A stretch of 64,000 bases of DNA from a candidate division FCPU426 bacterium (lineage in GTDB: Bacteria > Oederibacteriota > Muellerivitia > Muellerivitales > Muellerivitaceae), in NCBI GenBank assembly GCA_963847625.1, contig CAWKAR010000026.1, positions 1-64,000 on the forward strand. The letters run 5' to 3'. The position numbers and the translations under genes are program-made. Positions 4,554 through 27,124 of the stretch are shown one piece after another (within the stretch, counting starts at the first letter, position 1; every line of letters begins with the position of its first letter). A model generated the notes under the pieces. That model did not search any database, was not told the DNA's origin, and saw only the letters and a list, made by a program, of their open reading frames with translations.

Positions 4554-5798
4554 TTACGGTTTGGGCGGCGGCTCGTTCACCGGATGGGCCTTGACGGTCA
4601 ATTGGACCATGGGGCTTTCTTGTCCACCTTCACCCACAGTGGTCACGCCCACGATGTAATCGGCTCCACTTGACAATTTTTTAAGATTGACCGTGGTCTG
4701 GTTCAGGGGTTTGGAAGTGATCCGGATTAAAGCCTGACTGCCGGCCTTTTTTACATAGAGGTTGTACCCCATCACACCCTTTTCTTGGACGGTATTCCAG
4801 GAGAGAGAAAGGCCCTCCTCCGTGGGGTTGGCTAAAAATCCGGTGGGGGCATCCAATTCCTCCCCTATTTTGGGGCCGAACTGGAAAGAAAGAGAAAGCT
4901 GGTTGCCCATGCCCAGGTCCCCGATCGTGGTCAGGGCATAAGCCAATTCCGCTTGGCCCCACTTAACCCCCGCCCCGGCCGAGAAACCCGTCAGGCCCGT
5001 TAGGTTCCCATAAGGCGCGAACCTGTATCCCGCCCGCAACGCCAAAAACCCCTTGTACCAATACTCCATGCCCACGCTCGCTGTGGACAATTCGGTGACC
5101 TGCAAATTGATATTTCCGTCGCCAGCCAGGGCCAATTGGTGTTCTTCGCCGGGGTTGGTCTGGTAGGCCCCGGCGACATCGAGGGCCATGGGAAGGTTTG
5201 CGTTATCCAGTGTCCCTCCCACGTTTAAAAGCGCCATCCCGAAAGCCAGGCCCGCTTGCGGTATCCGGTATTTCAGCCCCAAATCACCCGCCACTGTTGA
5301 AGTATTGTCGTTTTGGAGGTTCTGCAGGATGACCTTGGCATCCACCCCGACGAGGAAGTTTTTCGCCGCTTCCATGCCGAACCCGCCGTAAAGGTTCATC
5401 CCGGTGGGGGAAATAGACCCGTTGGGAACCGGCATGTCGGAGGAGTTCAGGTTATAAAGGTCCACTTTCCCGAAATCCAAATAGTCGCCCCCCAGTGCCG
5501 CTCCCCTTGACTCCCCGAACCCATGGCCATAGCAGAGATGTTCCAACCCCAGGCTTTGGGCCCAACTGTTGTGGAGGATGGTGATTTGGTCGCCGGATAG
5601 CTGCCCCAGGCCCGCGGGGTTTACCCCCAGCGCATCCGTGCCCTCGGCCAGCGCTCCAAACGCGCCTGCGAGCGCGGCTTGGCGTGTGCTAGTGGGAATT
5701 AGGAGCCATGAAGCCGCGACACTGGCCAGGTTCGCGGCTCCCGCGTTGCAGGCCAACCCCAAGGCCATCAAGGCCAGGCAATAAGTCGTCTTTTTCAT
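4554..5798 (-). CDS. PorV/PorQ-family outer-membrane beta-barrel with C-terminal fibronectin type III domain
   Basis: Signal peptide; RQAALAGAFGALA...NPAGL motif; EYWY...ALRAGY; FN3-like LSWNT...GYNLY tail. Confidence 0.8.
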   Translation of the reverse strand: MKKTTYCLALMALGLACNAGAANLASVAASWLLIPTSTRQAALAGAFGALAEGTDALGVNPAGLGQLSGDQITILHNSWAQSLGLEHLCYGHGFGESRGAALGGDYLDFGKVDLYNLNSSDMPVPNGSISPTGMNLYGGFGMEAAKNFLVGVDAKVILQNLQNDNTSTVAGDLGLKYRIPQAGLAFGMALLNVGGTLDNANLPMALDVAGAYQTNPGEEHQLALAGDGNINLQVTELSTASVGMEYWYKGFLALRAGYRFAPYGNLTGLTGFSAGAGVKWGQAELAYALTTIGDLGMGNQLSLSFQFGPKIGEELDAPTGFLANPTEEGLSLSWNTVQEKGVMGYNLYVKKAGSQALIRITSKPLNQTTVNLKKLSSGADYIVGVTTVGEGGQESPMVQLTVKAHPVNEPPPKP

Positions 5799-5815
5799 TT
5801 GATCGGCGCTTTCCT

Positions 5816-6928
5816 TTACCGAATTACCAGAATTTTCTTCCAGTCAATGGAGGCGGTCCCATCGGCGTAATCCACTTCCAACCGAACCAAGTAAACCCCC
5901 GGCGCCACGCCTGTCGTATCCCAGCAGTTTTTCGGGAATCCGTTAAAGTCCAGGTTCGCCAGGGATTCCCCGGTGAAATTGTATACCTCCCAATGGCTTC
6001 CGGCGATGGCCCTGTCCGGATAAAGGCAGATCTTCTCCCCGCTATGCACAGGTACCGGGGCCAAAACTGTTTTTCCAAGGCCCGACAGGATTTCGGTGGG
6101 TGTCATGGTGAATGTGGGGGTAATCGTGGGCGTCTGGGTGAGGGTGGGTGTATTCGTCGGTGTCGGCGTTGAGGTTTTTGTAGGCGTAAAAGTGGGCGTG
6201 GGAGTCGCTGTTATGGAACAGGTATAAGCTGTAAAATTCGAGAACTCGGATTGGTTGGTCGAGTGGATATAGCCGCCCCGGATTCCCACGGCTCCGCTCG
6301 TGTAAGTGGAGTCGGTCACGTCGAAAATCATCTGGTTGTTAACGTAGCATTTGAAATCGGTCCCGCAGCAAACGACTTTCAGGGTGACCGAGCTTCCGTA
6401 CGTGTAAGCCGGCGTGGCCGAGTTGGCGAGGTAATTCCAGGAAGTGCTCGTATGGTACTCGACCTGCCACTCTTGCCCTGTGGTTTCGTTCCATTGGAAC
6501 GAATAAAAGTCCCCACCGTCTTGGGCGCGGAAGATGACGCCGATGATCCCGCTGTTTCCCGCCTGGGCCATGTTCACGACGCACTGGACGGTGTAATCGC
6601 TCAAGACATGGCTGAAATTGGAGTCCGTAACCAATATTTGTTCGGGGCTGTAATTGGAACCATAGGGCGCATCGATCAAATACCCGCCGGAAACGCTGAA
6701 ATAATTCGCGTAATTCGGATCCGTCGCGCCGGTATCACCGATATAAAAATTGTAATTGGACAGACTGGCGTTCGAGGAATAGGTGTCCTGGAATAGAACT
6801 CCTCCGGGACTACCGCAGCAAGACACCGGTGTCAGGGTAGGGGTCTGGCCGTAAGCCAAACCGGACGATCCCGCTAAAACAAGGGCGCATGAAAACATGA
6901 AATAGAGATGATCACGGATAGTTTTCAT
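5816..6928 (-). CDS. Secreted ConA/DUF1080-like beta-sandwich protein with short Thr/Pro linker and T9SS-like C-terminal sorting domain
   Basis: Likely start MKTIRD at 6928 (ORF track starts at 6985). Signal peptide; GVIFRAQD...DSTYTSGAVG; C-terminal LAPVPV...VYNFTGE...WDTTGVAPGVYLVRL. Confidence 0.75.
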   Translation of the reverse strand: MKTIRDHLYFMFSCALVLAGSSGLAYGQTPTLTPVSCCGSPGGVLFQDTYSSNASLSNYNFYIGDTGATDPNYANYFSVSGGYLIDAPYGSNYSPEQILVTDSNFSHVLSDYTVQCVVNMAQAGNSGIIGVIFRAQDGGDFYSFQWNETTGQEWQVEYHTSTSWNYLANSATPAYTYGSSVTLKVVCCGTDFKCYVNNQMIFDVTDSTYTSGAVGIRGGYIHSTNQSEFSNFTAYTCSITATPTPTFTPTKTSTPTPTNTPTLTQTPTITPTFTMTPTEILSGLGKTVLAPVPVHSGEKICLYPDRAIAGSHWEVYNFTGESLANLDFNGFPKNCWDTTGVAPGVYLVRLEVDYADGTASIDWKKILVIR

Positions 6929-7183
6929 AGTTACCTTATCAACATCAAGCATGCAAATAATGAAATCTAAGTTTAGCGTATTCATGGGTCAAAACAATTA
7001 AAATAAAATTTCCTCTTTATGGCGTCCCATTCCATGTAATTTGAGTATATTTGGGCTAGTAATAATTTGACCTATCCATGTAGAAGATTCGCTATTACAA
7101 GGAAGCAGGGTTTTGTGTTGGATTCAACAATGAAGGGGAGTGCGAAAAATCTTGGATCGCGAAGAGTTAAGCTCCCAGGGCCT

Positions 7184-7259
7184 TGGTGAGTCGGCCGGGG
7201 ATCGAACCCGGGACACCTACATTAAAAGTGTAGTGCTCTACCAACTGAGCTACCGACTC
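7184..7259 (-). tRNA. tRNA-Lys (UUU)
   Basis: GAGTCGG acceptor stem, TAGCTCAGTTGGTAGAGC D-arm, CTACA-CTTTTAA-TGTAG anticodon arm, GGTTCGATCCC T-arm, encoded CCA. Confidence 0.97.
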
Positions 7260-7283
7260 ACCCAAACCCTGGAATAAAAAAGT

Positions 7284-8600
7284 TCAGTTCTTCCTGAAAA
7301 TCCTGGTCCGGTCCTGGCCCACGGAAATCCACCTGATCGGGACTTCCACATATTTTTCAATCGCGTCCAGATACCTTCTGGCTTCCACGGGGAGATCCGC
7401 AAGCCGGGTGACGTAGGACAAGTCCCCATCCCAACCCTTCATTTCGGTATAGACCGGCTCACACTTCAAAAGCTCCGACAGGCTGGCCAGGAATTCCCCA
7501 GTCGTCTTTTTCCCAATCTTATAGGCCCTGCACAATTTGAGGGACTTCACCGTGCTAAGCACGTCCAACTTGGTGATCAGCAAGCCGGTAAAACCGTTGA
7601 TCCGGCAGGCATATTTCAGGGCGACGAGGTCCATCCAGCCGCAGCGCCTGGGCCTTCCGGTCGTGGCTCCGAACTCACCGCCCTTCTGACGGATCCGGTT
7701 CCCGAAAGTTTCCTCCATCTCGGAGGGAAAAGGCCCCTCCCCCACCCGGGTGGTATAGGCCTTGGCCACGCCGTAAATCTCATCCAGGAATTGGGGCCCG
7801 ATGCCCAATCCGGTGCAGACACCCCCCACGCTGGCGCTGGAAGAAGTGACATAGGGATAGGTCCCGAAATCCACGTCTAGGAGGGTCCCCTGGGCCCCCT
7901 CCGCCAGGAAATTCTTCCCCGCTTCCAGCTTTTCCCGAAGATACTTCGTCGTGTCCCGGACGAGCGGCTTGATCCGGGGAAAAGTCTTCAGGTACTCATC
8001 GGCGATTTTATCAGCGTTCGCGAGGGCGGAACCGTAATAATTCTTGAGCCAGAAATTTTTCTCCTTCACGATTTCCCTCAGTTTTTTCCGGAAATCCGAC
8101 GCCGAGAAGAAATCGCACACCCTCAGGCCGACCCGGGCCATTTTGTCCATGTAAGCCGGCCCGATGCCACGGTTCGTCGTGCCGATCTTACCAGCGCCCT
8201 TTCGGTTTTCGGAGGCCCCGTCCAGCATGCGGTGGTAGGGCATGAGTATCTGGGCCCTGTCGCTGATGATCAGGTGGCCGTCCAACTTCACGCCGGCTTT
8301 CTTGAGGGAATCCATTTCGCCCAACAACGCCACCGGGTCCAGGACCACGCCGTTACCGATCAGGCAGAGCTTGCCGTCATGGAGAATGCCCGAGGGAATC
8401 TGGTGGAACACTATTTTCCGGCCCTCGGCCACCACCGTGTGGCCGGCATTGCTGCCGCCCTGATAACGGGCCACGATGTCCACCTGTTCGGTCAGGACAT
8501 CCACCATCTTGGCCTTGCCCTCATCGCCCCACTGGGCTCCAATGATGACCAGGTTCTTCTTTTGGCGGACCGCGTGTTTTTTAACGTTTTTACGAGCCAT
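7284..8600 (-). CDS. purA: Adenylosuccinate synthetase
   Basis: GAQWGDEGK, GGSNAGHTV, GEFGATTGRPRRCGW motifs. Confidence 0.98.
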   Translation of the reverse strand: MARKNVKKHAVRQKKNLVIIGAQWGDEGKAKMVDVLTEQVDIVARYQGGSNAGHTVVAEGRKIVFHQIPSGILHDGKLCLIGNGVVLDPVALLGEMDSLKKAGVKLDGHLIISDRAQILMPYHRMLDGASENRKGAGKIGTTNRGIGPAYMDKMARVGLRVCDFFSASDFRKKLREIVKEKNFWLKNYYGSALANADKIADEYLKTFPRIKPLVRDTTKYLREKLEAGKNFLAEGAQGTLLDVDFGTYPYVTSSSASVGGVCTGLGIGPQFLDEIYGVAKAYTTRVGEGPFPSEMEETFGNRIRQKGGEFGATTGRPRRCGWMDLVALKYACRINGFTGLLITKLDVLSTVKSLKLCRAYKIGKKTTGEFLASLSELLKCEPVYTEMKGWDGDLSYVTRLADLPVEARRYLDAIEKYVEVPIRWISVGQDRTRIFRKN

Positions 8601-8631
8601 TTTTTTCCCCGGATTTCAGGCCATACCGGAC

Positions 8632-8696
8632 AAAAAAAAACCCTGCCAATGAGGGCAGAGTTGGAAAACCCCTGAAATCGTGCCCATCTTAAGGCA
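8632..8696 (-). promoter_or_regulatory. Intrinsic terminator / candidate attenuator in the purA leader
   Basis: Minus-strand CTCTGCC-CTCATT-GGCAGGG followed by T9 ends about 30 nt before the purA ATG. An upstream GGGCA can pair with the terminator 5' arm. Confidence 0.55.
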
Positions 8697-8859
8697 ATCC
8701 ACCCCTTAAAACAAGGGGGGTTTATCTTTCTCCGTGACTCTTTAAAGCCCGCTACGGCCGGGGTTGAATCAGTCAAATTCAAAGACGCGGTGAATGGGCT
8801 TATAATGTGGCATCAAGCGCCGGATGGGATGCCGCGAATTTCATATGAACGGATGGATC

Positions 8860-9567
8860 ATGAGGAAGGTATTTTTGGGAATTGCCCTGTGGATGGGATT
8901 GGCTTGCCTGTCCCCCATCCAAGCCTTTTCCATCGGCCCGGTGGGCGGGGCCAATTATTCCAGCATCCCGGACTTGCCCAACACCCAGACCCTGACGGAT
9001 TTGCTTCCCGCTTGGTCCGAAGGCCTTTACCTGGATTTTTCGCTGGCTCAGTACTTTTTTTTACAAACCGAACTGCGGGTCACCGGGAAGGGCACCTACA
9101 ATAAGGAGCAGGTCATCGTCACGGGAAACGCGGGCCTTCCCATCGGCTACTTCCAGCAACTCGAATCCATCAGCCTGAATTACCTTGAAATCCCCGTCAT
9201 GTTGAAACTCGAGGACAATGCGGCTCCCGATTGGAGGGTCCACGTTTTTGGGGGGCCTTACATCGCTTATTTGGTGGGGGCCGGCGACCATATCGATACC
9301 GTCGGGAACGGCTTCGTCCAGGACGATTCGGAGGATTTCAACATCATCGATAAATTCAACCGCTGGGACTACGGCCTGGTTTTCGGGGTGGGACTTGTGT
9401 TCCAGAAAACCTTCGTGGATTTCCGTTTCGACCTGGGGCTAACTGGCCTCCTCAAGAATACCACCCCGACCAACTATCAGGGGCCGAACGTATTCCTCCA
9501 GGGCTTCAACCAGCCCAACCTTCAAAACCGCACTTTTTCGCTCTTATTCGGTTACGAGTTTTTTTAA
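8860..9567 (+). CDS. PorT-like / porin-family outer-membrane beta-barrel (OMP_b-brl_2)
   Basis: Signal peptide; GPVGGANYS; LNYLEIPVMLK; C-terminal GYEFF beta-signal. Confidence 0.8.
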   Translation: MRKVFLGIALWMGLACLSPIQAFSIGPVGGANYSSIPDLPNTQTLTDLLPAWSEGLYLDFSLAQYFFLQTELRVTGKGTYNKEQVIVTGNAGLPIGYFQQLESISLNYLEIPVMLKLEDNAAPDWRVHVFGGPYIAYLVGAGDHIDTVGNGFVQDDSEDFNIIDKFNRWDYGLVFGVGLVFQKTFVDFRFDLGLTGLLKNTTPTNYQGPNVFLQGFNQPNLQNRTFSLLFGYEFF

Positions 9568-9613
9568 TCCAAAAATCGAAAATTCCAACTCGCCTATTCC
9601 CCACTAATCGATT

Positions 9614-11026
9614 TTATTTTCCCTGTTCCGAAACAAGCCCCTGATGGTCAGGCGATTCCAGCTTCTGGTACAAGTCCTGGATTTCATAATTATTCCGGTC
9701 CATTTCCTCGGCCTTCCGGGCTTTCCCCAGGGATGCCCCCCGGTTGTTCCGGTTCAGGTCATCTAGGCCCGCCTCGTAATAAGTCCTGGCTTGTTTCGAC
9801 ATGGGTTTCGGTTCGGCCACCCAATCGCCGCTGGAAGATTTTTCCTCCCCTTGGACGACGGACCGCACGTAAAGATGATAGCGGACTCCGTTTTTCACGC
9901 CGTCCAACAGGCAATAATTAGTCTGAAAGGGGGTTCGCCCGGCGCGCCGGTAATCCTTATCGCCTTCCTCCTTCCAATAAACCCAATACCCGTCGGCCTT
10001 GGTATATTCCGGAATCTCCCATTTCAGGTAGATTTTTCCGTCTCCGACGAGGGACCGGACGATGGAAGGTTTCGGATCCAGAATTTCCTCCCCGGAGCCG
10101 AAATGCCAACTGACGGACAACCGGTGGCTGTTTCCCAGGTTGCTGGAGTTGGACATGAAGGCATAATCCACCGACCATTGGGCGGCACGGTAACTGGCCC
10201 CCAGGCTGAAATCTCCAGGCAGGGTAATGAAGCTGGTGTAGCCTGCCCGGAAGCCCAACCGTCCGTCGAAAAACCAGTGTTCCAGGCCAGTCCTCACCCT
10301 CAGGTTCTGGTTGTTCAAAAGCGTGTCGTTGGAAAGAGTCCAGGGCAAATCCAAGGCGAGAAGGGTTTCCGGGTCGAAGTTCAAGGCCAAACCCGGGGTC
10401 AGAACCGGGGGCACGTCCTGTTCCTTGCCGGTGGCTTCCGAAGTAACAGTGGTGGAAATGTCGGTCAGGACCAAGCCCGCCCTCAGGGACATATCCGATC
10501 CCAAGGACCGCCGGTATAAAAGACCGAGATCGGCCGCCCAACCCTGGGACACGCCGTTCACCTGTCCGCTGTCGCCATAAAGGTAGCGGAGATTGACTCC
10601 GGCGAAGAGGCAGTTTTCCGGCGTTGAAAACAGGGCGAGGGCGAGGGAACCCGTGTACTGGTCCTCGTGGGAACCGGGGATACCGGGGAAAAACAGATTG
10701 TTGCTGCTCAATCCCAGACGGACTCCGTTGGGCAAGGGGTATTCCAGTGAAATATACAGGTTTTGGTTTTTGTCGTTAAAATAGGAACCATACATTCCGA
10801 GGATTTCCGTTTTTTCCATCTGGGCTAAACCCGCCGGATTCCAATAGGACGCGCTCGAGTCATCCGCAACCGCCGCGAAAGCCCCCGCCATTCCCATGGC
10901 CCGCGTCCCCACACCCAGATCGCCACCGCGATCGAACTGTGCCTCAACCGATGAACCGGTGAGCAAAAACCCGAAAAAAGCCAGTGGAAAGAAAAATGAA
11001 TAATGAAGAGTTTTAATTTTATTCAT
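9614..11026 (-). CDS. PorV/PorQ-family beta-barrel with FN3 and C-terminal TPR-like helices
   Basis: GTRAMGMAGAFAAVADDSSASYWNPAGLAQ; FN3-like LKWEIP...GYWVYW...NGVRYHLYV. Confidence 0.85.
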   Translation of the reverse strand: MNKIKTLHYSFFFPLAFFGFLLTGSSVEAQFDRGGDLGVGTRAMGMAGAFAAVADDSSASYWNPAGLAQMEKTEILGMYGSYFNDKNQNLYISLEYPLPNGVRLGLSSNNLFFPGIPGSHEDQYTGSLALALFSTPENCLFAGVNLRYLYGDSGQVNGVSQGWAADLGLLYRRSLGSDMSLRAGLVLTDISTTVTSEATGKEQDVPPVLTPGLALNFDPETLLALDLPWTLSNDTLLNNQNLRVRTGLEHWFFDGRLGFRAGYTSFITLPGDFSLGASYRAAQWSVDYAFMSNSSNLGNSHRLSVSWHFGSGEEILDPKPSIVRSLVGDGKIYLKWEIPEYTKADGYWVYWKEEGDKDYRRAGRTPFQTNYCLLDGVKNGVRYHLYVRSVVQGEEKSSSGDWVAEPKPMSKQARTYYEAGLDDLNRNNRGASLGKARKAEEMDRNNYEIQDLYQKLESPDHQGLVSEQGK

Positions 11027-11035
11027 GGTTTTCCA

Positions 11036-14000
11036 TTAACGGTTCATCAAGACTTTCAAGGATTTTTTGCTTCGCACCCCACTGGCCGGATCCTTCCATT
11101 CCAATACCAACAGGTAAAGGCCGGAGGCTACCACTTGCCCATTCCGATTCTTCAAATCCCAAACCACACTTCCCTTTACCAGCGGCAATATCCTGATTAA
11201 TTCACCGGTCAGGTTGAAAACCCTCACATCCACCTGGCCAGCAAGGGGTAGACCGCCCGAGGAGGCCGTGATCTGAACCAACCCACCGCCTCGTAATAGA
11301 TTGGGTTTGGCGGTAAAGAGAATAGTTCCCGCTGACCCTTCCCCAACATAGGCGTTTTCCGAAAGGATGCCGGGGTTCCCACTGGAAACGGTTTCCTGGA
11401 GGACGAAATGGTAAAAACCGCTCGGAACCGTCTTCCCGTTCTGGCCAGCGCAATTCCAGCCAACAATGGCCTGGCCGTTCAAATAAACGGTAATGGAGCC
11501 GCCCAGACTGGAAGGGTTGGGGACGAACTTGGAAAGTTCCAGGGTAAAGACCGTGCCGGCTGAAAACACTCTCTTGCCGCAAAGGGTGGCGACTTGTTCC
11601 CCTCTTTCATCGTAAATCCAAATCAACTGCGGACAACCCGCGGCGCCCTGGGTCGGTGTGGGGGTACCTGTGGAAGTTAAGGTCGGGGTAGCCGTGGGAG
11701 TAAAGGTAGGAGTTGAAGTTGTGGTTGACGTAAGCGTCGGTGTGTTCGTGGACGTGTTAGTTGACGTATTCGTCGGCGTATTCGTTGACGAGTTGGTCGG
11801 AGTGTTCATAGGAGTGCCAGTCGGAGTATCCGTTGGTGTGTTAGTGGGTGTCAAGGACGGGGTATCGGTATTAACCGGGGTCAGGGTCCCTGTGTCTGTT
11901 AGGGTCAGAGTCGATGTAATTGTATTTGTAGGACTGTTCGTTGGAGTTTGAGTCGGGGTATCCGTGGAAGTAAAGGCAGGAGTTGAAGTTGTGGTTGACG
12001 TAAGCGTCGGGGTGTTCGTGGGCGTGTTAGTCGAGGTGTTAGTGGGTGTAAAAGATGGTGTATCGGTATTGACCGGGGTTAGGGTCCCTGTATCTGTTTG
12101 GGTCGAAGTCGATGTAATGGTATTTGTGGGACTGTTAGTTGGAGTATGAGTTGGGGTATCCGTGGAAGTAAAGGTAGGAGTTGAAGCTGTAGTTGATGTA
12201 AGTGTCGGAGTGTTCGTAGGGGTGCCAGTCGAAGTATCCGTGAGTGTGTTAGTGGGTGTAAAGGACGGCGTATCGGTATTAACCGGGGTCTGGGTTCCTG
12301 TGTCTGTTCGGGTCGGAGTCGATGTAATTGTATTTGTAGGACTGTTAGTTGGAGTATAAGTTGGGGTATCCGTGGAAGTGCAGGTAGGAGTTGAAGTTGT
12401 GGTTAACGTAAGTGTCGGAGTATCCGTGGACGTGTTAGTCGGTGTCAGCGTGTTAGTGAATGTGTTAGTAGGGGTGTTCGTTAGCGTGTTGGTCGGTGTA
12501 TTCGCAGGTGTATTTGTTGATGTGTTCGAAGGTGTACTGGTATTGGTTTTTGTGGATATATTCGTTGGTGTATCTGATGGAGTATTCGTAGATGTATAGG
12601 TCAGCGTATTCGCGGGGGTGTTGGTAGGAGTATTGGTCAATGTGTTTGCTGGGGTATTCGTTGGTGTGAGAGTAAAGGTGTTAGTGGGCGTATTCGTTGG
12701 TGTATTAGTTGGAGTATCACTAGAGGTATCAGTGAGCGTGTTCGTCGGTGTCGGCGTATTGGGTGGGGTATTCGTTGGTGTATTTGTTGGAGTATCACTA
12801 GGAGTATCAGTTGGTGTGTTCGTCGGTGTCAGCGTATTGGTTGGGGTATTCGTGGGTGTGTTGGTAGGGGTGTTAGTGGGTGTATCCGTTGGCATATTCG
12901 TTGGAGTGTATGTCAGTGTTGGCGTATTGGTTAGGGTGTTTGTGGGCGTGTTGGTAGGAGTATGGGTGGGTGTATTGGTCGGTGTCGGCGTGTTAGTGGG
13001 TGTGTTGGTGGGGGTATTAGTAGGCGTATTCGTTGGAGTGTTCATCGGTGTCAAAGTATTGGTTGGGGTATTGGTGGGTGTATTGGTCGGTGTCGGCGTG
13101 TTTGTGGGTGTGTTAGTCGGGGTATTAGTGGGTGTCCGCGTACTGGTGGGCGTGTTAGTTGTTGTATAGGTGCGGGTGTTCGTGGGCGTATTGGTAACCG
13201 TGCTTGTCGATGTAGGCGTCGGGTTGCAATTGGCCGCATAAAATTCAATTGCCTGCATATCCGCGAGCGAAGTATTGCTCAATGTATAGCTCATCGGGTA
13301 AGTCGCGATCCCAGCAGCGGTTTTATAATTTCCTTCCGAGGAAAAACCCGGATTTGATTGTGACCATTCCTGGGTTTGGCCCGTCCCGGCCGTAAACGTC
13401 CTGTTGTTATAAACGTGGCACAAACCCACGATGACGGAGTTTTGCTGGTTCGTATTGATATTCATGGTCGGATTATTGATCGCCGTGGTTTGTTCAAAAT
13501 GAGCGGTGCTGCCAAGCGATGTATTCGGGGCAATACCCGTAAAGACTATCGCGCCAACATCCATATTTTGAGCGGCGTTGGTTGTTATCACTAGGTTATG
13601 AGACAGGCCATCCGTCGGGAGTTGGGAGCCGAATTCGTAATAAGTAAAACATTCATGGCCATTCGCGCTGTTAACCGCCAAGGCAAGTGTCAAAGCAACT
13701 CCGTTGTAAGTGGCAGCGGTGATGTTGTTGGTGTTGCTTTGGATCGCAACTTGAACGGCCAATAGTGGATTGGATAAACCGGCGGGAATCGTCAAAGCGA
13801 CCGTGGAGGTGGTTGTGTTCGCGTTGTACGCGCTTGTGGCAGTATTAAAACCGGTTGGGCATGTGGTATAGGGAGTATCAGTGGGTGTGATGGTGGGAGA
13901 TGGAGTTAGTGTAGAAGTGGGGGTCACGGTCGGAGTGCGGGTCACGGTAAAAGTGGGAGTCCAAGTAAAAGTCGGGGTCCAGGTGAGCACAGTTCCAACG

Positions 14001-15316
14001 CAGGAAGCGGCGTAAATCGAATAATTATTCGTCCCCAATGCCCCGCCGTTTCCGTTATTCCCGAAGGGGTTTTGCAAAGAATTATAAGGCCCCCCTGTCA
14101 TTGTTTCGGAATATTCGGTTCCCGCGGATCCGGTGTTATAAGCGACTGCCGCGGTCGTTCCGGTAAAGTAAAAGGCCAGCCAGTAACTTCCGGCTGGAAG
14201 GGCTGTGGATGGAACTGACACCTGATTCCAACCCGCAGCCATCGCCGTTTGCTGGCTTTGGACGATCAGGTTCCCGGGTACGCCCTCGTTATTGGCATAG
14301 ATACCTAAGACACCCGAGGCGGCGGTGGCTGCGCTCAAATAAATATCCATCGAGGTGACGGTGGCGGAATTGGAAAAGGTGTAAAGAGTGCCGTCTTGTC
14401 GGCCGACCCGATTGGCGCTCGCGGTACCGCCGACGCTAGTCAGACCAACCGTTTGAGGCGCGGAACAAGCGGGAGTGGGGGTGGATGTATTGCAAGTTCC
14501 CGTCGTGGTGATGTATTGCAGGCTTTGGTCTCCGCCAGTCGCCCCGGTAAAGCCGTAGTAAACCTGGGTCTGTCCCCCGAATACGTTGTTGATCAGATCC
14601 CGGTTGTAAGTCATGGTCTGTGGCACGCCCGCAGAATCGACAATAATAAAAGTCAGCACCTTGCCCGCGGGGTTCCAAGTGATCGTAATGGGGTGGGTCG
14701 CGTTGTTTTGGATGGTACTGGTGAAGGTATAGGGGCAGGTGACCCCGGGTGAACCGACATAACCGCAAGTATTCCCGGCTAACCCGTTTTCCTGGGGCGC
14801 CAAAACACCGTTGGTTTGGTAGGTCGCTATACCGATGGCGATCGAAGGCGCTATGGGATTGACCCCCGCGTATCCCCTGCAGGCCCCGCAGGGAAGACCA
14901 TTTCCGCTCAAAGCCGAGGTCGTACGCGGGTCATCCTGCAGGACGAAGTCGATGCCGTCCGCGCCTCCGCCGGTTCCATAATAAGCGTTGAAGCTTAGGG
15001 AAAAACTTTGGCTGAGGTCGATAGGAGTGGTGTTCCAACAAGCCCCGCTTTGCGCGCCTATATTCTGCGTGAGGGTGATAGATGTTCCCAAGCCCGTGGC
15101 GTCCCCGACCAAAGCCCAATTGGGGCAGGTTTGGGCGAAAAGTTCAGACCCATGCCCAAGCCAGGAAAAAACCGCCAAAAAGGCAATCCAAAGCAGACGG
15201 TTTGGTCTCACCCGATGGGCGCAGGCAGCGAAGACTCGGGCAACCGCCCGAAATCCCGCTATCGCAATGATGAAAGAATAAATTTTTCCGATCAAAAATA
15301 AACCTCGATAAGTCAA
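11036..15316 (-). CDS. Secreted surface protein: legume (L-type) lectin domain, further beta-sandwich domains, ~520-aa Thr/Pro/Asn stalk, two FlgD/CTD-like domains
   Basis: QSGACW...[10 protein letters not shown]...[11 protein letters not shown] lectin signature; C-terminal [10 protein letters not shown]...[17 protein letters not shown]. Start codon uncertain. Confidence 0.85.
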
Positions 15317-22734: not shown

Positions 22735-23667
22735 TCAGTACCAAAAAAGCAATCCGAATAGATATGAACTGGCAATGAAATCAGAACTGATTTGCGACGG
22801 CCTCCAGGCAAACCCGAGCTCATATTCAAGTCTGCCGAGGTTATAACGCAGCCCAGCGCCCAATGATAGACCGCCTTGCAAATTGCCCTGCTCGGTCAAA
22901 TGGTACCCAGCCCGAAGGGCCAAAATGCTCCGGTGCCAGTATTCGACCCCCATGGATGCCTGGTTCCCTTGATCCCGGACATTCAGTCCCTCGGCGCTGA
23001 CCAGCAGGGTGGAAGCAGGTGATACCAGCAGGGGCCGGGATAAGGCGACGCGAAAGGTCAATGGCAAGGGATCCTGGGACTGGGAGTTGGGCTGAAATTG
23101 GACGGCCGGCCCGATATTTTGTACGACCGCGGCAAAGTCCGTTTCCAAAACCTGGATTTTAATCCCGACATCAATAGCCTGGGAAAAGGCCTGTTTGTCC
23201 CCCAGGGTGGAATAAATGACTTTAAAAGCACCACCTAGGGAAAGTTTCCCGAATTGCTGCGCATCCGCGACCGTCAGGACAAAATCAGACGCGTTCACCG
23301 GAGGGTCCGTTGCGAGCGTGTTCTGGATGGTCGGCATATGGCGGTAAATGAGCTGGCCACCAATATTGCCGTATTTCTGGGTCGGCACCGCCACACTGAT
23401 CGATTCGGTCTCGACCCCCGCATATCCCTCAACGTGGTCCAAACCCAGGTTGTATTTGGAGATCCGGGCCAGTCCTGCCGGATTGTAACCAATCACATAA
23501 ACATCATCCCCGAAAGCCGAATAGGTCCCCCCCAAGGCGGCAGGGCGCACTCCCACCGGAACGGTCAAAAGGTCCGCTCCGCTGGTTCCGGGATCGGCGG
23601 CACCGCAAAATGCAGGCACAAAAAAAATCAATAATGTTGTAAATAACAGGATGACATGTTTCACCAT
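22735..23667 (-). CDS. Stand-alone PorV/PorQ-family beta-barrel
   Basis: VPVGVRPAALGG...YNPAGLA; EYW...LALRAGY; aromatic C-terminus. Confidence 0.85.
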   Translation of the reverse strand: MVKHVILLFTTLLIFFVPAFCGAADPGTSGADLLTVPVGVRPAALGGTYSAFGDDVYVIGYNPAGLARISKYNLGLDHVEGYAGVETESISVAVPTQKYGNIGGQLIYRHMPTIQNTLATDPPVNASDFVLTVADAQQFGKLSLGGAFKVIYSTLGDKQAFSQAIDVGIKIQVLETDFAAVVQNIGPAVQFQPNSQSQDPLPLTFRVALSRPLLVSPASTLLVSAEGLNVRDQGNQASMGVEYWHRSILALRAGYHLTEQGNLQGGLSLGAGLRYNLGRLEYELGFAWRPSQISSDFIASSYLFGLLFWY

Positions 23668-23862
23668 TTCAAACTATCACCCTCTCTTTTAGCAATCAAG
23701 ATAACACCGCCAAGCGTTCTCAAATCCATCACCCGCGAAATGAAATCCCTTACATTTTTATATTTTTACCCCGATTCAATGCTTTTATTAATCTGGTTGG
23801 ACGGTTTTTCCCACCGGTATGGCCGGGGTTACCCCTCGGATTCTCGCTCATCCCCTTAAAAT

Positions 23863-23899
23863 AAAAAAACCCGAAGGTTCCTTTCGGAACCCCTGGGTT
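23863..23899 (-). terminator. Terminator after tRNA-Gly
   Basis: AACCC...GGTTCC-GAAA-GGAACC...GGGTTTTTTT hairpin. Confidence 0.7.
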
Positions 23900-23903
23900 C
23901 ATT

Positions 23904-23978
<75 letters not shown>

Positions 23979-24013
23979 TTAAAAATTCCGATCCTTCATT
24001 GCTGAATGGATAC

Positions 24014-25873
24014 TCAATTGCGGCTCAACTTCTCGATGGATTGAAGTTTGACCATGGCCTTCTTAATATTATTCTGCGCATTGATATCTTCAGGGTCCTG
24101 CCTCAGGCATTCCTTCCATTTTTCAATGGCCTCGTGGATTTTCCCATTGATATAAAGGTTGACCCCATCGTAGTAAAGGTTTTTGATTTTTTCCGCGTCA
24201 ACTTTCTGCTGGGATTGCTGGCCCGTCATCCTCTTGACATAATCGTTGGCCTTAACGTTGTTGGGGTCGAGCTCCAACACCTGTTGAAATTTTACCTGCG
24301 CCTGGTCCTTGCTGCCGTTTTCCATGAGGGAAACCCCTTCCTCCATGAGTCCATTGACTTTATTGCGGATTTCGGTCCTCACCAGGAACAAGGTTTCACG
24401 GACTTTCGTGTTGGAGGGATCGATGCCGGAAGCGATTTGCAATGATTTTAACGCGCTTTGGAGTTGGCCGCTGCTCACGCTTTTTTGACCCTGTTTGTAA
24501 TACTTTTCAAACTCGGTTTTCTGGTCTTGTTTGACGCCGTTCAAGCGTTGCCTCACCACAGTGTTCTTGGAGCCGATTTTGCTCGCCTTTTGGTATTTTT
24601 GGAGAGCTCCTGAATAATCCTTTTCCAGCCTTAACTCATCCCCTTCCTCCAGCAAGGCTTTGACCTGGTCCTTCGTCTTCGACTTGATTTTTTGGACCGC
24701 CCCAAGGGCCTTGGCGTTGTTGGGATCCATGACCAGGACGGTGTTCCACTCAGTCAGAGCTTTAAGGGTATTGCCTTTTTGGGAATAAGCTCTTCCCGCC
24801 GCGTAATGTTTCTGCACCTCGGTCTCGAGTTTTCCTCGCGCGTCCGTGATGAAATCTTGGGCTTGTTTGTTATTCGGCTGGTACTTGAGTACCGCCTGCC
24901 ATTCCGAAATGGCCTCAGTGTATTGATTGTTCAGCAAATAATTGCTGGCCTTCTCCATATTGGCGTTGATGGCGGCATCGATGGCATTTCCCCGGCCAAC
25001 CGCCGCGTCCGAATCCTTTGGGTTGATTTTAAAAGCCTCCCCAAAAGCACCGGCGGCTTCATCGTACAGTCCGTTGTCGTAATAAGCGACCGCCAGGTTG
25101 TAAAAAGTTTCAGAATCATCAGGGTTCATTTTTTTTGATTTTTCATAATTCTGGATGGCTTCGGGGAATTTCCCAAGGTTGTAATAGGAAAAACCGAGGA
25201 ATTTGTAAATTCTGGCGTCTTTTTTTATTTTCAAGGCCGAGTTCCAGGCCGTAACAGCGTGGGCGTAATCCTTCATCTGGAAATAAGCAACCCCAAGGTT
25301 TTGAAACGCCCCGAAATTTCCGCGGTCAACCGCGAGGACCCGTTTCAACGCTTCCACGGCCTTGGGGTAATTTTTCTGGTCCATGTAAATCTTGGACAAA
25401 TCCTCGTTCGCGTTCGCCTGGACTTCCCGATCGTCCGGGAAGGCAGCCAAATATTTTTTAAGGGCCGCCTCAGCGTTCTCGTATTGGTTCAATTGGATAT
25501 AGGCTTTTCCCAATAACAGATTCGCGTTCGGATTGATGGGATTAAGCTTTAAAACGGCGTTCAAATGATTTACGGCATCGGCATATTTTTTCCCTAGATA
25601 GGCCGATATCCCTTCGGAGCTTTCCAAGAGTTCCTTGGCTTGCTGGTCCTTCGGGTTGAGTTGGAGGTATTTTTGGAACTCGGGGATAGCCAGGTCGTAT
25701 TGGGAAGCCTTGAAATAAGCGACACCCAAATTGAAATGGGGCGTCGGGGCGTTGGGATTCGCCTTGACCGCCTCCTGCTGGGCCTGGATCAACGCATCAT
25801 CTGACGCTAGGGATATTCCTGTTAAACCGGCGGCAATCCACAAAAAAATCCCTATGCACGTGAATATTTTCAT
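24014..25873 (-). CDS. Periplasmic multi-TPR protein
   Basis: Signal peptide from MKIFT; many TPRs (HFNLGVAYF, QNLGVAYF, YNLAVAYY). Confidence 0.85.
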   Translation of the reverse strand: MKIFTCIGIFLWIAAGLTGISLASDDALIQAQQEAVKANPNAPTPHFNLGVAYFKASQYDLAIPEFQKYLQLNPKDQQAKELLESSEGISAYLGKKYADAVNHLNAVLKLNPINPNANLLLGKAYIQLNQYENAEAALKKYLAAFPDDREVQANANEDLSKIYMDQKNYPKAVEALKRVLAVDRGNFGAFQNLGVAYFQMKDYAHAVTAWNSALKIKKDARIYKFLGFSYYNLGKFPEAIQNYEKSKKMNPDDSETFYNLAVAYYDNGLYDEAAGAFGEAFKINPKDSDAAVGRGNAIDAAINANMEKASNYLLNNQYTEAISEWQAVLKYQPNNKQAQDFITDARGKLETEVQKHYAAGRAYSQKGNTLKALTEWNTVLVMDPNNAKALGAVQKIKSKTKDQVKALLEEGDELRLEKDYSGALQKYQKASKIGSKNTVVRQRLNGVKQDQKTEFEKYYKQGQKSVSSGQLQSALKSLQIASGIDPSNTKVRETLFLVRTEIRNKVNGLMEEGVSLMENGSKDQAQVKFQQVLELDPNNVKANDYVKRMTGQQSQQKVDAEKIKNLYYDGVNLYINGKIHEAIEKWKECLRQDPEDINAQNNIKKAMVKLQSIEKLSRN

Positions 25874-25896
25874 GGGTTCCTCGAAACAGAAATGGC

Positions 25897-27108
25897 TCAA
25901 AGACCGTTGTTCGCCACGTCCAATACCAAAAGCTCGTCCACTTTTTTCCCGTTTTTCCCTATTTGGCGGCAGCGAATCATGGTTCCATCAATGGACCAAG
26001 CCAGTTCGGCAGTATAGTCAAGCTGTTGAATCGTTTTCAACCAGGTTTTATTTGTCCCGTTTGAATTAATGAGCCAAACCTTGCCTGCGTAAACGTACGC
26101 GATCTTGTTTCCGGCGGGATGATAAACCGGGTGAATCCCCAAGGAGTCACTTTTCGTGAAAAAAAGTGTTTGGGTGGCCATGGTCTTAACATTGGTTTTC
26201 TCCAATTTCCGCAAACCCCGGATGGATTGCCGGTAAACCAGTTCCTGGTTATCCTGGGACCAGCAGGGCAATTCCGCTCCGAAGGTTAAGGGGATTAGCG
26301 CAAAGACGACGTTGTCGGTTTTTCCCTTGATTCTTCCAAGGTAAAGATATTTGACCCGGCTGGGGGTCATGCGTCGTGAAACGAGAAGAGATCCATCGGG
26401 CGATAAAACCCCTTTCGGGTTGGGGAGCAAATCCGGCAGGAAGTCGGTTTCATAGCTCTTGTTGAAAGGAATTTCATTTTTCAACGTGATGAGAACCGCG
26501 TCATCAGCAGCGATATTGACCGCACGGCGGGCCCGGTCGATGAGGGATTCCACCTTGGCCCTGCGGTCCGGGGAGATCATGGCTGAAGGATAGGCCTGGA
26601 AAATCGCCTGGGCCTGGTCTTGGGCGCCTTTGTAATTTTTAGAGGAGTATAAGGCCGTTGCCGTTTGATATTGGGAGTCGACTAAAAACTGGATGGCGTC
26701 GTGGATTTGCGAATTGTCCAGAAAGAGTTTCAGGGCTTTCTGGTCGTAATCCGTCGCCTTGGTTGGGTTTTTCAGCTTGTCCTGGTAGAGGTTGGCCATA
26801 TCCAGCAGAGCATGAAGCGCTTCGTCGGAATCCGGATAATCGCTTACGACTTTCTCGAATTCGTCCAGGGCAATGTCGTATTCGGAAAGAGCTACGTAAT
26901 TTTTGGCGATCCGGTAATGAATCAGTGCCGCCAAATCCGTGGAGGAATTTCCCTTTAAATAATCCTGGTAAGCGTGAATCGCCTGCCGGTTCATCCCCGA
27001 ACGATCCATTTGGGAAGCCGATTCGAATGAGCTTCCGAAATACTTGCAACCCCCAAGCCCTAAAGAAGCTATTCCCAGTATCAGGATAAAGAAATTAAGT
27101 TTGGGCAA
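25897..27108 (-). CDS. Lipoprotein with TPR (BamD/CpoB-like) and TolB/PD40-like beta-propeller repeats
   Basis: Lipobox LGGC; FEKVVSDYPDS TPR; SPDGSLL, WSQDNQ, PAGNKIAY, WSIDG repeats. Confidence 0.75.
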   Translation of the reverse strand: MPKLNFFILILGIASLGLGGCKYFGSSFESASQMDRSGMNRQAIHAYQDYLKGNSSTDLAALIHYRIAKNYVALSEYDIALDEFEKVVSDYPDSDEALHALLDMANLYQDKLKNPTKATDYDQKALKLFLDNSQIHDAIQFLVDSQYQTATALYSSKNYKGAQDQAQAIFQAYPSAMISPDRRAKVESLIDRARRAVNIAADDAVLITLKNEIPFNKSYETDFLPDLLPNPKGVLSPDGSLLVSRRMTPSRVKYLYLGRIKGKTDNVVFALIPLTFGAELPCWSQDNQELVYRQSIRGLRKLEKTNVKTMATQTLFFTKSDSLGIHPVYHPAGNKIAYVYAGKVWLINSNGTNKTWLKTIQQLDYTAELAWSIDGTMIRCRQIGKNGKKVDELLVLDVANNGL

Positions 27109-27124
27109 TTTCGGACCTTTCCGC

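Follow-up and report, generated by a model that had tools for sequence, protein, structure and literature searches.

Two genes for secreted proteins in the window (the whole stretch of 64,000 nucleotides analyzed here) are each followed directly by a gene for an outer-membrane barrel, which raises the question of whether each barrel is a dedicated carrier of the protein encoded in front of it. The preliminary description had read both pairs as parts of a T9SS-like surface-display system in a host probably outside Bacteroidota, and an assignment of the host to Bacteroidota was indeed judged unlikely. The coordinates and gene order of both pairs were reproduced, as were the gaps between cargo and barrel, which amount to 17 bp in pair A and 9 bp in pair B, with both genes of each pair on the same strand (cf. 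Table 1). The signal peptide of cargo A follows the start at 6928, and a further in-frame ATG is present at 6985. Both cargos had been called glycan-binding; this agrees with the family assignment of cargo B (PF18483, legume lectin, 97.9 bits, above the cut-off), while cargo A can at most be termed PF06439-like (3-keto-disaccharide-hydrolase-like), its score being slightly below the cut-off. Thr/Pro linkers were seen in both cargos, and that of cargo B forms a stalk of ~500 residues.

Table 1. Positions of the cargo-barrel pairs and of neighboring features in the window.
Feature	Positions	Strand	Composition or context
Barrel A	4554-5798	-	PorV-family 14-stranded outer-membrane barrel, N-terminal plug, C-terminal FN3
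Cargo A	5816-6928	-	Signal peptide, PF06439-like domain, short Thr/Pro linker, subtype-A CTD
Subtype-A CTD of cargo A	5819-6088	-	
purA (adenylosuccinate synthetase, housekeeping)	7284-8600	-	Between pair A and pair B
Small outer-membrane barrel, OMP_b-brl_2	8860-9567	+	Convergent with barrel B
Barrel B	9614-11026	-	PorV-family barrel, FN3, further tail of ~60 residues
Cargo B	11036-15316	-	Signal peptide, legume-lectin-type domain, two domains without assignment, Thr/Pro-rich stalk, FlgD-like Ig, subtype-B CTD
Subtype-B CTD of cargo B	11039-11323	-	
Cargo-less cluster	22735-28876	-	Same system
Plain PorV-family barrel	22735-23667	-	Cargo-less cluster
TPR protein	24014-25900	-	Cargo-less cluster
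TPR protein with lipobox-like signal	25897-27108	-	Cargo-less cluster
PorV-family barrel fused to FlgD-Ig and OmpA	27125-28876	-	Cargo-less cluster

The barrels, described beforehand as PorV/PorQ-like, were compared with family models and solved structures. Barrel A passed the cut-off of the PorV/PorQ family model NF033709 (127.5 bits; cut-off 90) and barrel B fell marginally below it (87.3 bits), while both remained under the cut-offs of the PorV equivalog NF033710 (40.9 and 29.2 bits for A and B; cut-off 250) and of the PorQ model NF033711 (83.1 and 15.8 bits; cut-off 220). Toluene_X gave no match to barrel A at E 0.01 and 18.1 bits for barrel B (cut-off 29.7). A barrel profile searched against PDB retrieved PorV with E 2.4e-24 and TodX with E 0.03, and Foldseek placed the AF2 model of barrel A (mean pLDDT 90.7) closer to PorV (1.6e-14) than to FadL (4e-6). 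The top structural match of this model was PorV (6h3i_F; VIA Z 33.6, rmsd 3.5, 281 residues aligned), followed by FadL (Z 29.0) and a BAM-complex barrel (Z 26.1). PorV was thus ahead of FadL in both sequence and fold comparisons; the assignment as a plugged 14-stranded barrel nearest to PorV refers to the model of barrel A, and is extended to barrel B by sequence relation (26% identity over 400 aa). The additional C-terminal FN3 domain noted in both barrels was above the Pfam cut-off in barrel A (residues 316-397), where it would face the periplasm, and close to it in barrel B (22.6 bits; cut-off 25). It proved to be one tail type of several: of the 16 PorV-family genes in this genome, four encode FN3 tails, four OmpA, three TPR and four none, the remaining one having a 122-aa tail without assignment. 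The FN3 tail was therefore rejected as the defining feature of the system.

For the C-terminal tails of the cargos, the type A CTD model TIGR04183 (cut-off 23 bits) gave scores below the cut-off, namely 17.0 bits for CTD A and 15.4 bits for CTD B; there were 52 other matches to this model in the genome, many of them above the cut-off. Foldseek alone was weak on CTD A (best E 1e-3). The three best matches of the CTD A model were, however, all T9SS CTDs (Z 10.0-10.9, rmsd <2), those of NucA and FspA scoring Z 10.9 and 10.6. The model of CTD A, which occupies the very end of the protein, is an Ig sandwich of seven strands with a conserved Lys in the last one and the Gly of loop b3-b4, as in the motifs described for known CTDs (PMC11285876, PMC10994853). 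Since profiles of tails A and B were homologous (hhalign, 96.4%), we retained the designation of both tails as CTD-like in spite of their TIGR04183 scores. K85 and K90 were near-invariant.

A putative SprA homologue is encoded in this genome (G000:C45:145448-151489), with 236 bits against TIGR04189 (cut-off 200). A search of PDB with the single sequence gave no match, and a profile was required, which aligned with F. johnsoniae SprA at E 5e-49. The protein has ~2000 aa with FN3 domains at its N-terminus, and SprA matches were found in 58 of the 61 genomes of the phylum. The gene behind it encodes a 1580-aa CTD protein for which no assignment was obtained. SprA, the PorV-family barrels and the type-A-like CTD fold together support the view of a T9SS-like system. 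A scan for SprA and PorK/L/M/N gave a divided result, as the motor models, which lacked a positive control, found GldM in 0/61, GldL in 0/41 and GldN in 0/41 genomes and GldK as partial sub-cut-off matches in 19/41, with none in the other 22. The GldM model was also silent in the controls that were tried (two plasmid records and one genome); the SprA, PorV and CTD models, in contrast to the Gld motor models, do match in the same lineage. No PorU sortase was found in this genome, which is 93.9% complete, as the matches to NF033707 were confined to the CTD part of that model (positions 962-1095). The type B CTD model TIGR04131 had no match, and no control matched it either, while the PorP model TIGR03519 had two weak matches, both to PorV-family barrels (at most 19 bits; cut-off 90.55). 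SprE/PorW, PorG, PorT, PorZ and Plug gave weak scores that were incidental and did not come from a genome-wide search.

We then considered pairing and CTD-barrel matching beyond the window. Eleven of the 16 PorV-family genes in this genome lie directly after a CTD gene, against a background of 76 of ~3445 genes (2.2%; binomial p 2e-15); the genome encodes 124 CTD-like proteins. Pairing was conserved in related genomes: it was found in 99 of 117 family loci, which had been selected for similarity to A or B, and for 25 of 34 PorV-family genes in a genome of another family (G004), as well as 3 of 9 in G027. Orthologues of barrel B were detected in 22 of 31 relatives (43-62% identity), with a further one at 34%, and within the family the gene is kept between rsfS and purA. 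In a set of 138 pairs from 32 genomes, CTD and barrel divergence were correlated (Mantel r 0.77; at most 0.21 across 999 within-genome shuffles), and the nearest foreign CTD fell in the same barrel cluster in 103/103 cases (shuffle mean 20, maximum 35). Profiles built without this genome ranked its correct cargo first among the 124 CTDs in all five clusters that contain one of its barrels; cargo B came first with a profile made from the relatives' barrel-B partners alone. Such co-diversification is partly expected from linkage alone, since adjacent genes are co-inherited. A search of named genomes yielded a single distant barrel, from Gemmatimonadota, with no CTD gene upstream.

The barrels had been called substrate-specific, which these data support at the level of the CTD subtype and disfavor as a strict one-to-one use, because unlinked CTD relatives are common and, judging from sequence matches, some occur in genomes in which no matching barrel was found. 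The joint absence of barrel B and subtype-B CTD from four genomes agrees with the matching; in contrast, subtype-B CTDs without a detected barrel B occurred in four genomes, one of them 99% complete, and G078 (82% complete) has barrel B without a subtype-B CTD. Among 36 subtype-A matches within the taxonomic order, 21 were paired, 14 were fetched and had no downstream barrel (two of these loci end at a contig edge), and one was unchecked; several unpaired subtype-A CTDs sit in genomes in which no A-type barrel was found.

The complex of CTD A with its cognate barrel A, the one CTD-barrel pair that was folded, was predicted with a score of 0.94, the best of three controls reaching 0.00. Of 157 solved complexes, 116 attained the score mark used, as did 2 of 215 mismatched pairs. 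Runs for pair A agreed in at least 99% of contacts, with a partner pLDDT of at least 88. The predicted interface comprises the N-terminus and all seven loop regions of barrel A, and in it the last-strand Lys of the CTD contacts the residue equivalent to PorV F115, as in the known PorV-CTD contact. The score may stem from the predictor's memory of similar solved PorV-CTD structures.

Gene pairing, the PorV fold, the CTD fold, the SprA homologue and the co-diversification of CTD subtypes with barrel subfamilies are direct observations. Beyond them, we consider it probable that each pair consists of a cargo with a type-A-like CTD and a PorV-family barrel acting as its likely dedicated carrier and surface anchor, with SprA-based export and no detectable Gld/Por motor. 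The cargo would pass the inner membrane via Sec and then enter SprA, at whose lateral gate the subtype-matched barrel would capture it, the CTD coming to rest on the extracellular loops of the barrel. It would remain barrel-bound thereafter, because no PorU sortase was found that could cleave the cargo and attach it anew. The lectin or enzyme domain may be kept at a distance from the cell by the Thr/Pro stalk. On the periplasmic side, the tail (FN3 in these two barrels, OmpA or TPR in paralogues) may tether the barrel to a partner or the wall. Large CTD families without an adjacent barrel could be served by a general, tail-less PorV.

A serious, though in our opinion unlikely, alternative is that PorV carriers are promiscuous, so that any paralogue takes any CTD, pairing provides for co-expression or stoichiometry and the subfamily match reflects linked inheritance. 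This would fit the presence in the predicted interface of G64, Y66 and K85, universal residues common to all CTD subtypes, as well as the lack of excess subtype specificity at CTD interface positions (0.31 vs 0.34 elsewhere, p 0.83), the unlinked CTD relatives in genomes where no matching barrel was found, and the use, in F. johnsoniae, of one PorV for type A CTDs of diverse kinds (PMC10994853, PMC12618676). Against it speak the following observations: (i) for 10 of the 11 paired CTDs, this genome contains no unpaired relative sharing at least 45% identity, and its four largest CTD families (40, 20, 9 and 8 members) contain no paired member; (ii) the barrel loops involved in the predicted interface are conserved within subfamilies and unlike between them, barrel interface positions being more subfamily-specific than others (0.39 vs 0.29, p 1e-4); and (iii) in G015 no cargo adjoins barrel B, yet two subtype-B CTDs persist elsewhere in the genome.

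It is improbable that the pairs form self-contained two-partner or capture devices working without SprA, which would then serve the unpaired CTD families only. Plugged 14-stranded barrels of the FadL/PorV fold, such as these, are too narrow for folded cargo; in addition, the paired CTDs retain the Lys used by translocon-bound CTDs, and SprA co-occurs throughout most of the phylum. These points outweigh the failure to find a motor that could extract carriers from SprA and the extent of the predicted interface, which exceeds the three PorV loops engaged inside SprA (PMC10994853). Quite improbable, too, is a complete T9SS with a motor and ring too diverged for the Gld models, in which only the carrier expansion would be unusual. 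The failure of SprA itself in the single-sequence search, the uncontrolled Gld searches and the conserved cargo-less cluster of the window, with its TPR proteins and PorV-OmpA fusion, agree with this reading, which does not conflict with the proposal of cognate carriers; the near-silence of the Gld models beside matching SprA, PorV and CTD models, and the equally reduced set reported for Ignavibacterium and Melioribacter in the part of PMC11705866 available to us, argue against it. Finally, a reading in which the barrels belong to the FadL type and import hydrophobic compounds or breakdown products generated by the adjacent enzymes or lectins, the tails being unrelated Ig folds, is very improbable, as the second rank of FadL homologues, the weak Toluene_X matches and the term FadL-like for related Treponema UPF0164 barrels (in the accessible part of PMC13749626) stand against the first rank of PorV in every comparison, the CTD interface predicted for pair A, and barrels that follow the CTD and not the passenger, which at a constant CTD subtype may be hydrolase-like, an S53 protease or a propeller.

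With the type A route of Bacteroidota, in which SprA/Sov is the translocon and PorV the carrier of type A CTDs (PDB 6H3I, 8GL6, 8GLK, 8GLJ; PMC10994853), the present system shares the PorV-fold barrel, the seven-stranded CTD, the last-strand Lys, the SprA homologue and the predicted F115-equivalent contact. It differs in having, instead of one general carrier, 16 PorV-family paralogues (8 to 52 in relatives), most of them encoded behind cargo and with periplasmic tails, in its SprA of ~2000 aa with N-terminal FN3, in the failure to find GldL/M/N and PorU, and in a host that probably does not belong to the FCB group. The dependence on the motor of release from SprA in F. johnsoniae (PMC10994853) counts against the proposed route. 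As with type B CTDs and their cognate PorP/SprF carriers (PMC12618676, PMC9143113, PMC12635249), a cargo gene precedes its own 14-stranded carrier, and subtypes match with some orphans; here, however, carriers belong to the PorV family, tails are type-A-like, and barrel and periplasmic module form one fused protein. OmpA and TPR modules on the carrier side recall the PorP-PorE wall anchor described in the same papers, while a Cys-tail connection to a GldK track is not apparent. Ignavibacterium and Melioribacter were reported, by BLAST, to have a reduced SprA-PorV-Plug set and no other T9SS proteins, hence a similar translocon core; unlike the present lineage they are FCB members, and the part of that report available to us does not mention cargo-matched PorV paralogues (PMC11705866). 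FadL/TodX and BamG (PMC12611786) are likewise 14-stranded barrels with an N-terminal plug (Z 26-29), but always score below PorV and have no described CTD partner. Our literature search, older comparative surveys (Rhodothermus and similar genomes) excepted, turned up no cargo-matched PorV paralogues.

Current papers confine T9SS to Bacteroidota or FCB, consider the motor necessary for cargo release, and assign one general PorV to all type A cargo and dedicated carriers to type B only; an origin of T9SS inside the gliding machinery has been inferred (PMC12635249). We tentatively propose that a non-FCB phylum may run a motor-less, T9SS-derived display, in which PorV paralogues read a CTD-subtype code and each barrel anchors its cargo permanently, with a fused tail (FN3, OmpA, TPR) that determines the location of the cargo or its signaling target. 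If true, such a display would take the place of the sortase as well as of the PorP-PorE route, and the SprA-PorV-CTD core would predate the gliding motor and be able to work apart from it. With its SprA, its many cargo-matched PorVs and its lack of a detectable motor, the lineage makes carrier specificity testable, together with SprA function without GldLM and the question of whether the translocon is older than gliding. Small orthogonal CTD-barrel pairs might also be tried out as surface-display tags, and the system offers a possible route for placing enzymes and lectins on the surface of these likely polysaccharide-degrading bacteria.

As for the limits of the module, the pairs do not form one operon, because purA separates them, and a single operon over 4554-15316 was ruled out by purA and the convergent gene; purA lies near barrel B in 15 relatives. 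Promoter and terminator scans were about at shuffle level (11 vs 7.4 and 24 vs 16.6). The small outer-membrane barrel, described earlier as PorT-like, is indeed adjacent, but a role in the module was rejected in view of its convergent strand, its score against the PorT model (E 0.006 only) and the lack of a homologue in the relatives' loci examined, including the 23 barrel-B loci; it is probably a bystander. The order of the first three genes of the cargo-less cluster, for the PorV-OmpA fusion and the two TPR proteins, was seen in none of 11 loci of other families, which were chosen by length, and was kept in 8 of the nine family loci fetched.

The four ORFs of the two cargo-then-barrel pairs lie where the preliminary description had placed them (cf. 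table), all on the minus strand of contig C26, whose first 64,000 positions form the window, with gaps of 17 bases in pair A and 9 bases in pair B; the genome (4.43 Mb) is 93.9% complete. The barrels share 26% identity across 400 residues, FN3 counted in, and their assignment as PorV/PorQ-like held for barrel A, which exceeds the cut-off of the family model NF033709 and has PorV as its top match by profile, Foldseek and VIA, while barrel B stays just under that cut-off; the PorV and PorQ equivalog cut-offs were reached by neither. Glycan-binding cargo was likewise recovered in part: cargo B, with a long Thr/Pro stalk, has a legume-lectin domain above cut-off and is putatively glycan-binding, whereas cargo A has a PF06439-like domain scoring slightly below cut-off. 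Between the pairs are located purA, which is close to barrel B in 15 relatives, and a plus-strand outer membrane protein (OMP) formerly proposed as a PorT-like partner, a role not sustained by a PorT match at E 0.006 only and no homologue in relatives' loci. The window also encodes two further secreted Thr/Pro-stalk proteins, one truncated at the contig end and the other bearing a CTD (T9SS-type C-terminal export tail) of the largest unpaired family without an adjoining barrel, as well as a DnaK-like Hsp70 followed by a DnaJ-TPR protein within a nadD-proB housekeeping run.

Positions of the features discussed, by contig of the genome under study
Feature	Position	Strand	NF033709 match
Barrel A	C26:4554-5798	minus	127.5 bits (cut-off 90)
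Cargo A	C26:5816-6928	minus	
Barrel B	C26:9614-11026	minus	87.3 bits (under cut-off 90)
Cargo B	C26:11036-15316	minus	
Thr/Pro-stalk protein, truncated	C26:2-2854		
Thr/Pro-stalk protein, unpaired CTD	C26:49987-55284		
Hsp70 and DnaJ-TPR genes	C26:17021-19377		
PorV-FlgD-OmpA cluster	C26:22735-28876		
SprA region	C45:138087-151489		
FN3-rich protein (L205)	C45:151486-156228		
Tail-less PorV	C19:29852		best in genome
Cargo-barrel pair L194	C22:62388-66813		
Cargo-barrel pair L201	C22:75353-78338		
Cargo-barrel pair L199	C27:59607-64179		
128-aa protein	C22:75353-75739		

The AlphaFold2 model of mature barrel A (26-sequence alignment, pLDDT 90.7) has a plug at the N-terminus, then 14 strands that form the barrel, with an FN3 domain following the last of them. 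Since normal OMP topology puts a domain after the last strand in the periplasm, this FN3 is predicted to be periplasmic. The alternative that the barrel is a FadL-type transporter was not borne out: FadL is matched by Foldseek (4e-6) and by VIA (Z 29.0; BAM-complex barrels about 26), and TodX by profile comparison (E 0.03), yet PorV is ahead each time (1.6e-14; Z 33.6, rmsd 3.5, 281 aligned; E 2.4e-24). As modelled, the fold is PorV-like, and function is not implied by a common fold. FN3, noted earlier on both barrels, is indeed present on A and B, and is one tail among several, the 16 paralogues of the genome carrying FN3 (four), OmpA (four), TPR (three), an unassigned tail (one) or none (four); these tails recall the PorP-PorE wall anchor, here in fused form.

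The CTD-like character of the cargo ends is upheld by the predicted fold of tail A and not by the type A model TIGR04183, under whose cut-off both tails fall. The best VIA matches of the CTD A model (pLDDT 90.4) were the CTDs of NucA (Z 10.9), FspA (10.6) and mirolase (10.0), with rmsd 1.7-1.9, ahead of a best unrelated match of Z 9.6; the NucA and FspA structures are translocon-bound forms in T9SS. Foldseek gave weak values, with PorU at rank 1 and NucA at rank 3. Nearly all members of subtypes A and B, i.e., the tails of cargo A and cargo B with their relatives, keep the last-strand lysine. A CTD interface on the barrel is predicted for pair A, the complex scoring 0.94 and the best of three controls 0.00. 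The mark it passed is attained by 116 of 157 solved complexes as against 2 of 215 mismatched pairs, figures that apply only roughly with the alignments used. At least 99% of contacts agreed between runs (partner pLDDT at least 88); in the model, CTD A contacts the N-terminus and long loops of barrel A, and its K85 touches F88, V91 and D92. By alignment, F88 and Q60 correspond to F115 and N87 of Flavobacterium johnsoniae PorV, the two residues to which the conserved CTD lysine is bound in the structure solved by cryo-EM (PMC10994853). Since similar complexes have already been solved, the score may reflect memory of them, and the prediction indicates likeness to known complexes, not cognate preference. 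Barrel interface positions are more subfamily-specific than the rest (0.39 vs 0.29; 50 vs 238 positions, six clusters, p 1e-4), also among loops only (0.38 vs 0.27), and CTD interface positions were not more subtype-specific than others (p 0.83).

The genome holds 16 PorV-family genes (17 matches) and 124 proteins with CTD-like ends, found with a profile seeded with 35 TIGR04183 matches (best reversed decoy E 1.5); a few of the 124, e.g., three proteins encoded next to ECF sigma genes, may not be cargo. A CTD gene lies directly upstream of 11 of the 16 barrels vs 76 of about 3445 genes. A SprA homologue is present as a 2013-aa protein on C45 (236 bits, cut-off 200) with an N-terminal FN3; its family profile recovers the SprA of F. 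johnsoniae (E 5e-49), and as a single sequence it had no match in the PDB. In the phylum sample, PorV-family genes were found in 61/61 genomes and SprA matches in 58/61. Motor and ring models, searched without positive control, detected GldM in 0/61 genomes, GldL and GldN in 0/41, and GldK as partial matches below cut-off in 19/41. For PorU only the CTD part of the model matched in the genome, the type B CTD model gave no match at all and the PorP model weak ones only. This SprA/PorV/CTD system is not classed here as a complete T9SS. On C45, SprA stands just past skp and putative lipid A genes, from which it is separated by two putative lptF/G-like genes of the opposite strand. Directly 3' of SprA lies an FN3-rich 1580-aa protein with its own CTD, a candidate plug or adaptor with homologues likewise placed behind SprA in 14 of 21 loci from relatives. 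In the window, a PorV-FlgD-OmpA fusion, a TPR protein with a lipobox-like signal and a weak TolB-propeller match, a TPR protein of 628 aa and a plain PorV form a cluster resembling a split PorE/PorP or SprE-like core; 8 of 9 loci from the family share the order of its first three genes.

SusD is absent from 32/32 genomes of the order (Bacteroides control positive), and most of the nearest Atlas clusters carry the label Goldiibacteriota, given by 2-3 members of known phylum; this makes Bacteroidota an unlikely assignment for the lineage, in line with the initial placement of the system probably outside that phylum, and a relationship to Goldbacteria a likely one. The T9SS is described as exclusive to Bacteroidota (PMC12618676) and SprA is termed FCB-specific (PMC12611786), while Ignavibacterium and Melioribacter are reported to have PorV, SprA and Plug and none of the other T9SS proteins (PMC11705866), so that a motor-less core has already been published. 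Goldbacteria are presented as cellulose degraders in PMC7031533, in the available portion of which 'type IX secretion' occurs solely in a reference title, and Treponema UPF0164 barrels have been named PorV/FadL-like (PMC13749626).

The pairing is conserved in relatives. The fetched loci contain 162 distinct barrels; the gene directly upstream encodes a CTD protein in 99/117 from the family (a biased sample, picked by likeness to A or B), 25/34 from the related genome G004 and 3/9 from G027, and in 21/23 loci of barrel-B orthologues. Barrel and CTD identities correlate (r 0.77; 138 pairs, 32 genomes) far above 999 within-genome shuffles (at most 0.21), and the nearest CTD of another genome came from the same barrel cluster in 103/103 cases (shuffle mean 20, maximum 35), counted over the nine clusters of at least three, with 35 pairs in smaller clusters excluded; one cluster contains two tail types. 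Profiles made without this genome ranked its correct cargo 1/124 in all five clusters having a barrel here. These figures overstate specificity, because kin are not independent and linked genes are inherited together. Beyond linkage stand genome G015, with barrel B lacking adjoining cargo and two subtype-B CTDs elsewhere, and four genomes with neither barrel B nor subtype B; over 32 genomes, 23 have barrel B and a subtype-B CTD, four the CTD only (one of these 99% complete) and one the barrel only. Most of the paired CTDs are singletons, with a nearest-neighbour identity of 0.35 vs 0.71, and none of them belongs to the four largest CTD families. Passengers differ within a subtype: with subtype A they are the PF06439-like domain of cargo A, pro-kumamolisin proteases (4 of 7 scanned relatives) and, on C13, a propeller protein; with subtype B they are proteins of lectin, malectin or NHL type. 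The 36 subtype-A matches include 21 paired ones, all within the top 23, and one left unchecked; no barrel was found downstream of 14 fetched matches, two of them cut short by contig ends, nor directly behind the seven unlinked subtype-B copies examined. The cognate barrel is therefore probably not the sole exit for subtype A and B tails, and it may decide retention more than export. In one relative (G067, C6; L025), the barrel-A orthologue is broken by stop codons and the subtype-A cargo upstream is intact. An extra FN3-tailed barrel subfamily (L064-L068), not found in this genome, has a conserved upstream gene in which no CTD was recognised.

From sequences and models, we consider the following route fairly probable: cargo would pass through Sec and then SprA, be captured by whichever PorV paralogue matches its subtype and remain attached, uncleaved, with the barrel's periplasmic tail securing it. 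Unpaired CTD families would use a tail-less general PorV, e.g., that on C19. In published systems, PorV serves all type A CTDs and cognate PorP/SprF barrels serve those of type B, among which orphans and crosstalk occur (PMC12618676); T9SS structure, motor requirement, dedicated type B carriers, the PorE anchor, CTD motifs and FCB range are covered in PMC10994853, PMC12635249, PMC9143113, PMC11285876 and PMC11205867. The present pairs would work like type B cognate pairs, yet consist of type A parts. A literature search, subscription journals and supplements lying outside it, turned up no description of cargo-matched PorV paralogues, nor any of a SprA/PorV system in this lineage; the pairs are real and conserved and would form a not previously described variant of the T9SS carrier logic, with the known motor apparently missing.

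Three further cargo-barrel pairs (L194, L201, L199), two with Pfam-recognised TPR tails, each lie beside an ECF sigma gene and the gene of a protein of 230-340 aa with a FlgD/CTD-like end, an arrangement that may represent a signalling module of the cell surface that includes an anti-sigma factor. On C22, a 128-aa protein has hardly anything beyond its signal peptide and CTD, and its partner barrel is TPR-tailed. Plasmid NC_013502.1 of the cultured Rhodothermus marinus (L250) has three genes in an order resembling that of the pairs described here: one for a TonB-dependent receptor, one for a protein of 1132 aa with a weak match to the PorZ CTD region at its end, and a PorV/PorQ family gene.
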